DNA of 64,000 bases from Escherichia coli (GTDB lineage Bacteria; Pseudomonadota; Gammaproteobacteria; Enterobacterales; Enterobacteriaceae). Below, piece after piece: positions 20,377-59,110 of this stretch. Both the position numbers and the translations under genes were made by a program. Location: NCBI RefSeq assembly GCF_003334335.1, contig NZ_QOWQ01000011.1. One strand, written 5' to 3'. The notes beneath the pieces are model-generated. The model searched no databases, had not been told where the DNA came from, and saw only the letters and a program-made list of their open reading frames with translations. The number at the start of each line of letters is the position of its first letter. Within the stretch, counting starts at the first letter, position 1.

Positions 20377-20913
20377 ATGCGTCGCGCTAACGATCCGCAA
20401 CGGCGAGAAAAAATTATCCAGGCCACGCTGGAGGCGGTGAAACTTTACGGAATACATGCTGTTACGCACCGCAAAATTGCTACCCTTGCCGGGGTACCGT
20501 TGGGATCGATGACCTACTATTTTTCAGGAATTGATGAGTTGTTACTGGAGGCGTTCAGCAGTTTTACTGAGATCATGTCCCGGCAATATCAGGCATTTTT
20601 TAGCGATGTTAGTGATGCTCCGGGCGCATGCCAGGCTATCACCGATATGATCTACAGCTCACAGGTTGCAACGCCGGATAACATGGAGCTGATGTACCAG
20701 CTCTACGCGCTGGCTAGCCGAAAACCGCTATTAAAAACGGTAATGCAAAACTGGATGCAGCGCAGTCAGCAAACGCTCGAACAATGGTTTGAACCCGGAA
20801 CCGCCCGCGCGCTTGATGCGTTTATTGAGGGGATGACGCTGCATTTTGTCACCGACCGTAAGCCGCTATCGCGCGAGGAGATTTTGAGGATGGTTGAGAG
20901 GGTTGCAGGGTAG
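20377..20913 (+). CDS. rcdA: TetR-family transcriptional regulator (regulator of csgD)
   Basis: 178-aa product from ATG 20377 ([21 protein letters not shown]...), GAGAGAGGA Shine-Dalgarno upstream; TetR HTH at the N-terminus. Confidence 0.9.
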
Positions 20914-20932
20914 TAGATAAGTTTTAGATAAC

Positions 20933-21011
20933 AAAAAACCCATCAACCTTGAACCGAAATGGCGGGGTTGATGGGCTCCACAAAATGGGGACATCAAAGA
21001 AAAGCAGTGGC
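20933..21011 (-). ncRNA. rybB: RybB small RNA (sigma-E dependent, represses outer membrane protein mRNAs)
   Basis: The minus strand of 20933..21011 reads GCCACTGCTTTTCTTTGATGTCCCCATTTTGTGGAGCCCATCAACCCCGCCATTTCGGTTCAAGGTTGATGGGTTTTTT, which I recognise as RybB; ends in a GC hairpin plus U-run. Confidence 0.9.
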
Positions 21012-21013
21012 AC

Positions 21014-21046
21014 TAATTAAGACTGATGCCCTGCGGAAAAGTTCTG
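21014..21046 (-). promoter_or_regulatory. Putative sigma-E promoter of rybB
   Basis: On the minus strand GAACTT (-35 like, 21039..21044), about 16 nt spacer, TCTTAA (-10 like, 21017..22), a few nt before the RybB 5' G. Confidence 0.5.
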
Positions 21047-21087
21047 CGGTTGTGCAAAAAAATTTCATTTTCAGGGCAACTTCAGTT

Positions 21088-22773
21088 TTATCCTAATCCT
21101 GGCCATACCATGACGATGATTGTCCCTGCCAGCGTCAGCAGGACGTTGGCGATTGCATAGGTGCCCGCATAGCCCAGCGCCGGGATGTTACTGCGAGCTG
21201 TATCACTGATGATCTCCATTGCCGGCGCGCAGGTACGTGCGCCCATCATTGCGCCGAACAACAGCGCGCGGTTCATTCGCAATACATAAGCACCGAACAA
21301 GAAACAGATAACCACGGGCACCAGACTGACAATCAATCCGGCAATCAACATCTGACCGCCAATCGCGCCCAGGCCGTTATTAATACCGCTACCGGCGCTC
21401 AGACCAACGCCTGCCATAAACACCATCAAGCCGAACTCTTTCACCATGCTTAATGCACCCTGCGGAATGTAACCGAAGGTCGGGTGGTTAGCACGCATAA
21501 AGCCCAGCATAATTCCGGCGAATAACAACCCGGCAGCGTTCCCCATGCCGAAACTGAATGTGCTGAACTGGAAGGTGATCATCCCGATCATCAGCCCAAT
21601 AACAAAGAAGGCGCAGAATGCCAGCAGGTCAGTGACCTGGCTGTGAATCGAGATAAAGCCGATGCGATCGGCGATGGTTTTTACGCGGCGGGCATCGCCG
21701 CTGACTTGTAAAACGTCACCTTTGTTAAGCACGACGTTGTCATCTATCGGCATCTCAATCTGGCTACGAATGACGCGGTTAAGGAAGCAACCGTGATCGG
21801 TCAACTTCAGTTGTGCGAGACGTTTACCTACAGCGTTATGGTTTTTAACGACCACTTCTTCAGTGACGATACGCATGTCGAGAAGGTCACGATCGAAAAC
21901 TTCTTTACCGTTACGGAAGCTGGGATCGAGTCGGGCATGGGCGTCGGGATAGCCTACCAACGCTATTTCATCGCCCATTTGTAGCACGGCATCACCGTCT
22001 GGATTTGCCAGAATCCCGTTACGTCGAATACGTTCAATGTAGCAGCCGGTTTGTCGATAAATACCCAGTTCACGCAGATTTTTGCCGTCGGTCCAGGCCA
22101 CCAGTTCCGGGCCGACGCGATAGGCGCGGATCACCGGTAAATAAACCTTACGGTTGGCATCAGTGTCCAGGCCACGTTCGCGGGCGATTTGCTGGGCGCT
22201 GGTCTGTAAGTCCTGATGCTGCAATTTCGGCAAGTAACGCGCACCAACAATCAAACTCACCAGACCGATTAAATAGGTTAAGGCATACCCGAGGCTCAGA
22301 TTATCCAGTGCCAGTGAGAGCTGCCTGCTTTCCATGCCGGAATGACGCAGTGTATCGCCAGCACCGACCAGAACCGGTGTCGACGTCATAGAGCCTGCTA
22401 ACATACCGGCCGTCAGGCCAATATCCCAGCCAAACAGCTTACCTAACCCTAAGGCGATCACCAGCGCACTGCCAACCATCACCAGTGCTAACATTAGGTA
22501 ATTTTTCCCATCGCGAAAAAAAATGGAAAAAAAGTTCGGTCCGGCTTCGACCCCGACGCAGAAAATAAACAGCATAAAGCCAAGATTAAGCGCATCGGTG
22601 TTAATGCTGAAATGTTGTTGGCCTAATAACAGCGATACGACTAAAACGCCAATGGAATTACCCAGTTGGATCGAACCAAGTCGTAACTTTCCGAGACATA
22701 GCCCAAGCGCGAGGACCACAAATAATAACAGAATGTAATTCCCATTTAACAATTCGGCGACGTTTATATTCAC
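21088..22773 (-). CDS. ybjL: Putative transporter with duplicated membrane domains and central TrkA-C domains
   Basis: 561-aa ORF; recognised as K-12 YbjL. Confidence 0.92.
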
Positions 22774-58706: not shown

Positions 58707-58794
58707 GTTCACTGCCGTACAGGCAGCTTAGAAATTCACAGGTAACATACTCCACCCGCCCACCATGTTCACTGCCGTACAGACAGATAAAATG
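58707..58794 (+). CRISPR. Minimal orphan CRISPR array (type I-F repeat family): two repeats, one 32-bp spacer
   Basis: Repeat 1 gttcactgccgtacaggcagcttagaaa (58707..58734) with the internal palindrome ctgcc-gtaca-ggcag; spacer ttcacaggtaacatactccacccgcccaccat (58735..58766); repeat 2 gttcactgccgtacagacagataaaatg (58767..58794), identical for 16 nt then degenerate. No cas genes in the window. Confidence 0.75.
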
Positions 58795-58836: not shown

Positions 58837-58924
58837 ATGGCGGTGAGGGGGGGATTCGAACCCCCGATACGTTGCCGTATACACACTTTCCAGGCGTGCT
58901 CCTTCAGCCACTCGGACACCTCAC
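58837..58924 (-). tRNA. serW: tRNA-Ser (anticodon GGA)
   Basis: The minus strand reads GGTGAGGTGTCCGAGTGGCTGAAGGAGCACGCCTGGAAAGTGTGTATACGGCAACGTATCGGGGGTTCGAATCCCCCCCTCACCGCCA: 88 nt with long variable arm, GGA anticodon in the CTGGAAA loop, TPsiC-loop GGTTCGAATCC and 3' CCA. Confidence 0.9.
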
Positions 58925-59110
58925 CAAATTGTTTTGCTACCAAACCTCATGGGTGGCAACGGGGCGCTACTATAGGGAGTTGGAGTAAAACGGTCAAGAA
59001 GAATTTTAATGATAATTATTGTTTGCTCATACTGTAAACAAGTTGTGCAGTATATCTACATCGAGACAAGTTACGGACTTATACTTCCAAAGTACTTCAT
59101 ACATATCACA

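Follow-up and report, generated by a model that had tools for sequence, protein, structure and literature searches.

The gap between rcdA and ybjL in the 64,000-nucleotide stretch of Escherichia coli DNA analyzed here, which we call the window, appears empty on an ORF track. This raises the question of whether it houses a non-coding gene and, if so, from which promoter that gene is transcribed, where its transcript ends and whether the hairpin at its 3' end also serves a neighboring gene. An earlier note, made from the letters of the sequence, had recognized on the minus strand of 20933..21011 the small RNA RybB, ending in a GC hairpin and a U-run. It had also read a sigma-E-type promoter from the elements GAACTT and TCTTAA just upstream and considered the hairpin likely to terminate rcdA as well.

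Identity and genomic setting of rybB

The minus-strand sequence of 20933..21011, GCCACUGCUUUUCUUUGAUGUCCCCAUUUUGUGGAGCCCAUCAACCCCGCCAUUUCGGUUCAAGGUUGAUGGGUUUUUU, corresponds to a 79-nt RNA beginning with the +1 G at 21011 and ending with the last U of a U6 run at 20933. A cmscan search with Rfam 15 that covered the whole window recovered the RybB family RF00110 at 20930..21008 on the minus strand with 105.3 bits (E 1.3e-20), far above the 40-bit gathering score of the family and over the full length of the model (positions 1-79 of 79). The 3-nt offset of this match from the span first proposed for the RNA arises because the model takes RNA nt 4 as its first position and continues for 3 nt beyond the U-run. 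Over 20860..21100 the window matches E. coli K-12 MG1655 with 100% identity, and with an MG1655-to-window coordinate offset of 867046 the annotated ncRNA rybB (b4417; 887979..888057, minus strand) falls on 20933..21011, which makes the boundaries given in the earlier note exact to the base. The same conversion places rcdA (ybjK; MG1655 887423..887959) at 20377..20913 on the plus strand, in agreement with the ORF ending at 20913. It places ybjL (MG1655 888134..889819) at 21088..22773 on the minus strand, likewise in agreement with the ORF list, and thereby confirms that the RNA gene lies in the rcdA-ybjL gap. The rcdA stop is situated 20 nt short of the rybB 3' end, with the two genes being convergent, and ybjL is co-directional with rybB, its stop at 21088 lying 77 nt upstream of the rybB start. 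This location between ybjK (rcdA) and ybjL has been stated as a synteny for both Salmonella and E. coli (PMC1804206), and the 221-bp region holding rybB (window 20880..21100) was found in 5423 of 5426 complete E. coli genomes.

With identical sequence, neighbors, sigma-E promoter and terminator, the locus displays no difference from the known RybB (Rfam RF00110; E. coli b4417). That this stretch represents E. coli K-12 rybB, furnished with its sigma-E promoter and its own terminator, we hold to be about 98% probable, and none of our observations speaks against it. It is a reference copy of a well-characterized RNA, and the identification is correct but already known, there being Northern, promoter-fusion and Term-seq data for the main claim. 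The gene is annotated in the curated MG1655 record, unlike in the PGAP-annotated RefSeq record NZ_CP025916.1, which is identical in sequence to window 20880..21100 and lacks the rybB feature; this bears out the view that such a non-coding gene is easily missed on an ORF track. Thus, rybB is left unannotated in some PGAP-annotated E. coli genomes at least, and probably in most of them.

Elsewhere in the window, 58707..58794 on the plus strand contains a type I-F CRISPR repeat that is perfect (Rfam CRISPR-DR4, 50.1 bits), followed by a 32-nt spacer and a second, degenerate repeat (GTTCACTGCCGTACAGACAGATAAAATG). The adjoining tRNA gene, at 58841..58925 on the minus strand, has a long variable arm. 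The arrangement looks like an orphan mini-array beside the tRNA gene, and we take it to resemble the known K-12 CRISPR remnant near serW. Rfam matches were also obtained to naRNA4, comprised of REP-type paired hairpins (75.5 bits; 33706..33786, plus strand), and, barely over the threshold, to ES036/CssrF (42.2 bits; 32684..32726, plus strand).

The sigma-E promoter and its conservation

Upstream of the +1 G at 21011, the minus strand carries GAACTT at 21044..21039 (-33..-28), being part of the -35 element aGAACTT (21039..21045), and TCTTAA at 21022..21017 (-11..-6) within the -10 element AGTCTTAA (21017..21024; -13..-6). A 16-nt spacer separates the two motifs and the -10 element ends 5 nt ahead of the +1, which is the arrangement expected of a sigma-E promoter, namely motifs about 16 nt apart and a -10 element ending 5-6 nt before the start. 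The published consensus is given by GGAACTTTT and GTCAAA (Papenfort et al. 2006, PMC1804206), from which the aGAACTTTT of the window deviates by one mismatch and its GTCTTA by two. The pattern GAACTT-N16-TCTNA occurs once in the 64-kb window as against 0.08 occurrences expected by chance. The looser GAACTT-N16-TCNNA (0.50 expected in the window) is not significant by itself and was set aside as evidence; hence we base the promoter call on position and conservation. A scan for a sigma-70-like site upstream of rybB found none.

To characterize this conservation we retrieved 120 loci from one-genome-per-species contigs by an exact match to a 20-nt pattern inside the RNA (nt 4-23), of which 116 yielded distinct, usable promoter-plus-gene sequences, and built from these an ungapped profile anchored at +1. 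The loci span Escherichia, Citrobacter, Enterobacter, Klebsiella, Serratia, Yersinia, Sodalis, Proteus, Providencia and Xenorhabdus. Given that they were selected by an exact match at nt 4-23, the invariance of that segment is by construction; the promoter and the terminator stem played no part in the selection. Across the 116 loci the heptamer GAACTTT at -33..-27 retains 1.8-2.0 bits and AGTC at -13..-10 retains 1.6-2.0 bits, with 1.8-2.0 bits at -12..-10 and -7. The conserved -10 element includes the invariant G-12, T-11, C-10 and A-7 (the last at 2.0 bits) and the nearly invariant A-13 and A-6, and the T at -1 is also invariant. The spacer (-25..-14; 0.04-0.80 bits) and the segment -44..-37 (0.05-0.32 bits) are variable. 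The elements are thus conserved across orthologous loci with the spacer drifting, as would be expected of a sigma-E promoter.

Further upstream of the -35 element lies an A/T tract reminiscent of an UP element (AAATTTTTTT; 21056..21064, minus strand), the T-run of which at -50..-45 retains 0.84-1.44 bits in the same profile. As this conserved tract is located where an UP element would sit, we infer that it might act as one at rybB, a promoter which was counted among the active strong sigma-E promoters in a study of UP elements (PMC3326320). Earlier work had noted near-perfect, conserved sigma-E matches upstream of rybB and found that a rybB promoter fusion loses nearly all activity above background when rpoE is deleted (Papenfort et al. 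2006, PMC1804206). Accordingly, the sigma-E-type promoter of the earlier note is upheld by motif, spacing and phylogenetic footprint, together with these published fusions.

The 3' hairpin and the neighboring genes

The Rho-independent terminator of RybB occupies 20929..20975 on the minus strand and is comprised of a 12-bp stem (AGCCCAUCAACC / GGUUGAUGGGUU) enclosing a 17-nt loop, followed by the U-run. Both the Rfam structure line and the minimum free energy (MFE) fold recover this GC-rich 12-bp stem and the succeeding U6, and the RNA as a whole folds with an MFE of -25.2 kcal/mol (z -3.48), with no shuffled sequence folding equally well. When 65 distinct RybB sequences were aligned, standard pairs filled 97.0% of the stem cells as against 85.8% in shuffles, and compensatory changes on both sides were observed at 7 of the 12 stem pairs (e.g. 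A-U to G-C in 27 and C-G to U-A in 25). None of 500 shuffles attains the stem values observed, and only 14-50% of the cells pair once the 3' partner is displaced by 1-3 columns. These pairs were counted with the Rfam stem; RNAalifold applied to a MAFFT alignment mis-registered the stem base. The hairpin and U-run described in the earlier note are thus backed by covariation. Further, Term-seq places a strong primary rybB 3' end at MG1655 887977 (Adams et al. 2021, PMC7815308), which maps to window 20931, two bases past the annotated end of the gene.

This pattern of conservation also bears on whether the locus might encode a small protein, for the mechanical ORF list contains both a 43-aa ORF with a TTG start (20866..20997, minus strand) and a 45-aa ORF (20959..21096, plus strand) across rybB. 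However, conservation at rybB tracks the RNA structure, by way of compensatory changes in the stem, rather than codons. The 43-aa ORF begins within RybB and crosses the terminator into sequence that is unconserved between genera, and MG1655 annotates neither ORF. We accordingly rejected both as coding genes and assign next to no probability to this reading. That RybB is additionally, or mainly, a processed 3' fragment of the ybjL mRNA likewise appears very improbable. It would accord with the proximity of the ybjL stop to the +1, with the absence of a GC-rich hairpin followed by a U-run between that stop and the rybB promoter (window 21012..21087, minus strand), and with the lack of a distinct ybjL 3' end in the Term-seq tables. 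It is opposed by the conserved sigma-E promoter at the correct distance from the mapped rybB +1 and by published evidence that the 5' end of RybB is primary, that its promoter fusion is strictly rpoE-dependent and that the RNA accumulates upon sigma-E induction (PMC1804206). At the same time, with no GC-rich hairpin and U-run intervening, read-through from ybjL should reach the rybB hairpin, which is then probably also the first terminator for this co-directional gene, a role we consider more plausible than one in ending rcdA. In the ybjL leader, the same Term-seq data list an "orphan" 3' end at MG1655 889895 (window ~22849, minus strand; Adams et al. 2021), 76 nt upstream of the ybjL start, which suggests premature termination or processing there.

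The 3' end of rybB additionally contains the attachment core of P2-like prophages (ATGGGTTTTTTGTT; 20930..20943, minus strand), which is made up of the final five stem bases, the U-run and GTT, and which is empty in the window. A 90-nt query spanning the 3' end of rybB is held by 5419 E. coli genomes, and the rybB-rcdA junction is contiguous in only 4223 of them. As many as ~22% of complete E. coli genomes have the junction interrupted and the site occupied. P2-like prophage genes begin directly after rybB in both of the two interrupted genomes that we examined. In one of these, NZ_CP024141.1 (3245400-3285400 examined), a full P2-like element of ~34 kb, extending from ogr to the integrase, is lodged between rybB and rcdA. 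Here ATGGGTTTTTTGTT is common to both prophage junctions, rybB is intact and the rcdA-side junction presents a phage-borne hairpin with the same GGGTTTTTT ending. A reconstructed attP matches Klebsiella phage KP12 over its full length with 96.5% identity. The use of the rybB 3' end as a P2-like attachment site is already published: Felsduovirus prophages integrated within rybB occupy hotspot #29 in 109 genomes (Hochhauser et al. 2023, PMC10121019), and the island Kpn38RybB has been described in Klebsiella (Hudson et al. 2014, PMC4048246). As in the tRNA and tmRNA genes used by prophages for attachment, the 3' end of the gene provides the crossover core, here for P2-like (Felsduovirus) integrases, and the RNA gene is left intact; unlike in those, the target is the terminator of a regulatory sRNA rather than a tRNA 3' half. 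In the 116 loci a segment of ~13 nt past the U-run and outside the RNA (majority GTTGCCTGAAATT; window 20917..20932, minus strand) is moderately conserved across genera. In lysogens of E. coli, the flank on the phage side of attL is equal to GTTGCCTGAAATT, and K-12 has GTTATCTAAAACTT at this position. The segment might belong to an extended att core or else represent flanking phage DNA that earlier integrations left behind.

The proposal of a shared, bidirectional hairpin terminator that also ends rcdA fares less well than the rest of the earlier note. In its favor, rcdA runs convergently into the hairpin with its stop only 20 nt away, the plus-strand RNA is able to adopt the same stem, and convergent E. 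coli gene pairs have been reported to terminate, with polymerase collision, at stem-loops devoid of a canonical U-tract (bioRxiv 10.1101/2022.10.23.513370). A simple terminator scan misses even the RybB terminator itself, whose loop exceeds 8 nt; its silence on the plus strand is hence uninformative, and the tails following the stem were therefore judged directly from the sequence. On the plus strand the tail is CUCCACAA, with one U in eight, as against UUUUUUGU on the minus strand. Since CUCCACAA provides no U-run, the hairpin fails as a plus-strand intrinsic terminator, and the U-runs on both strands that typify a bidirectional intrinsic terminator are not seen here. The Term-seq tables of Adams et al. 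(PMC7815308) call no plus-strand 3' end in any condition and contain no rcdA 3' end at the site, the sole entry being the minus-strand RybB end, on which rcdA figures only as an "antisense" label. This absence weighs lightly, as low expression of rcdA could explain it. The SMRT-Cappable-seq supplements make no mention of rcdA, ybjK, rybB or ybjL, and the follow-up preprint to the SEnd-seq work does not name the rybB-rcdA locus. Further, a prophage parts rcdA from the hairpin in as many as ~22% of E. coli genomes. Taken together, termination of rcdA at the hairpin is unsupported, albeit not refuted, and we regard it as rather unlikely. There is also a slender chance that rcdA transcripts pass the hairpin and read through all of rybB, in which case their 3' UTR would be perfectly complementary to RybB. 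If so, RcdA, an activator of csgD, would be coupled to RybB, a reported repressor of csgD, by cis-antisense titration or RNase III cleavage, and lysogens would lose this coupling owing to the prophage inserted at the 3' end of rybB.

Regulatory role and implications

While the identity, boundaries, structure and promoter footprint of rybB come from the present analysis, its sigma-E dependence, Hfq dependence and targets are taken from the literature on the same sequence. RybB builds up upon sigma-E induction and omp mRNAs rise upon loss of rybB (Papenfort et al. 2006, PMC1804206). RybB depends on Hfq and represses omp mRNAs (PMC1804206, PMC6694218), with OmpA and OmpC being among its targets (Peschek et al. 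2019, PMC6694218). The target-pairing region, or seed, was read from the sequence as GCCACUGCUUUUCUUU at the very 5' end of the RNA (20996..21011, minus strand) and contains the conserved seed CRCUGCUUUU of sigma-E-dependent sRNAs (Peschek et al. 2019, PMC6694218). Its first three bases, GCC, which fall outside the search pattern, are invariant in the 116 loci, and 12 of its 16 bases are unpaired in the MFE fold. This fold predicts a 4-bp helix of CCAC (nt 2-5) with GUGG (nt 31-34) and leaves the rest of the 5' part largely open.

In the account best supported by these features and the published work, envelope stress frees sigma-E, and the sigma-E RNA polymerase initiates at the G at 21011 from GAACTT-N16-TCTTAA. 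The resulting transcript, of about 79-81 nt, ends at RybB's own stem-loop and U-run. Together with Hfq, the single-stranded GCCACUGCUUUUCUUU then pairs with many mRNAs for outer-membrane proteins, such as ompC and ompA. Such pairing blocks their translation and hastens their decay, with fewer unfolded porins and a feedback on sigma-E as the outcome.

RybB shares its promoter type, with GGAACTT and a GTCAAA-like element, with its E. coli counterparts among the sigma-E-dependent Hfq sRNAs, MicA and MicL, and like them represses abundant envelope proteins under envelope stress. They differ from it in sequence, seed and locus, with MicL arising from within cutC and MicA being located between luxS and gshA. 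MicV and VrrA of Vibrio cholerae have the seed CRCUGCUUUU and the repression of porins in common with RybB but are not homologous to it beyond the seed, Vibrio being without rybB.

As a textbook sigma-E-dependent sRNA, rybB raises no new question in this genome. Its recovery nevertheless offers two practical lessons, one being that the reading of its sequence, boundaries and promoter in the earlier note was base-accurate. The other is that rybB escapes ORF-based tracks and automatic PGAP RefSeq annotation alike.
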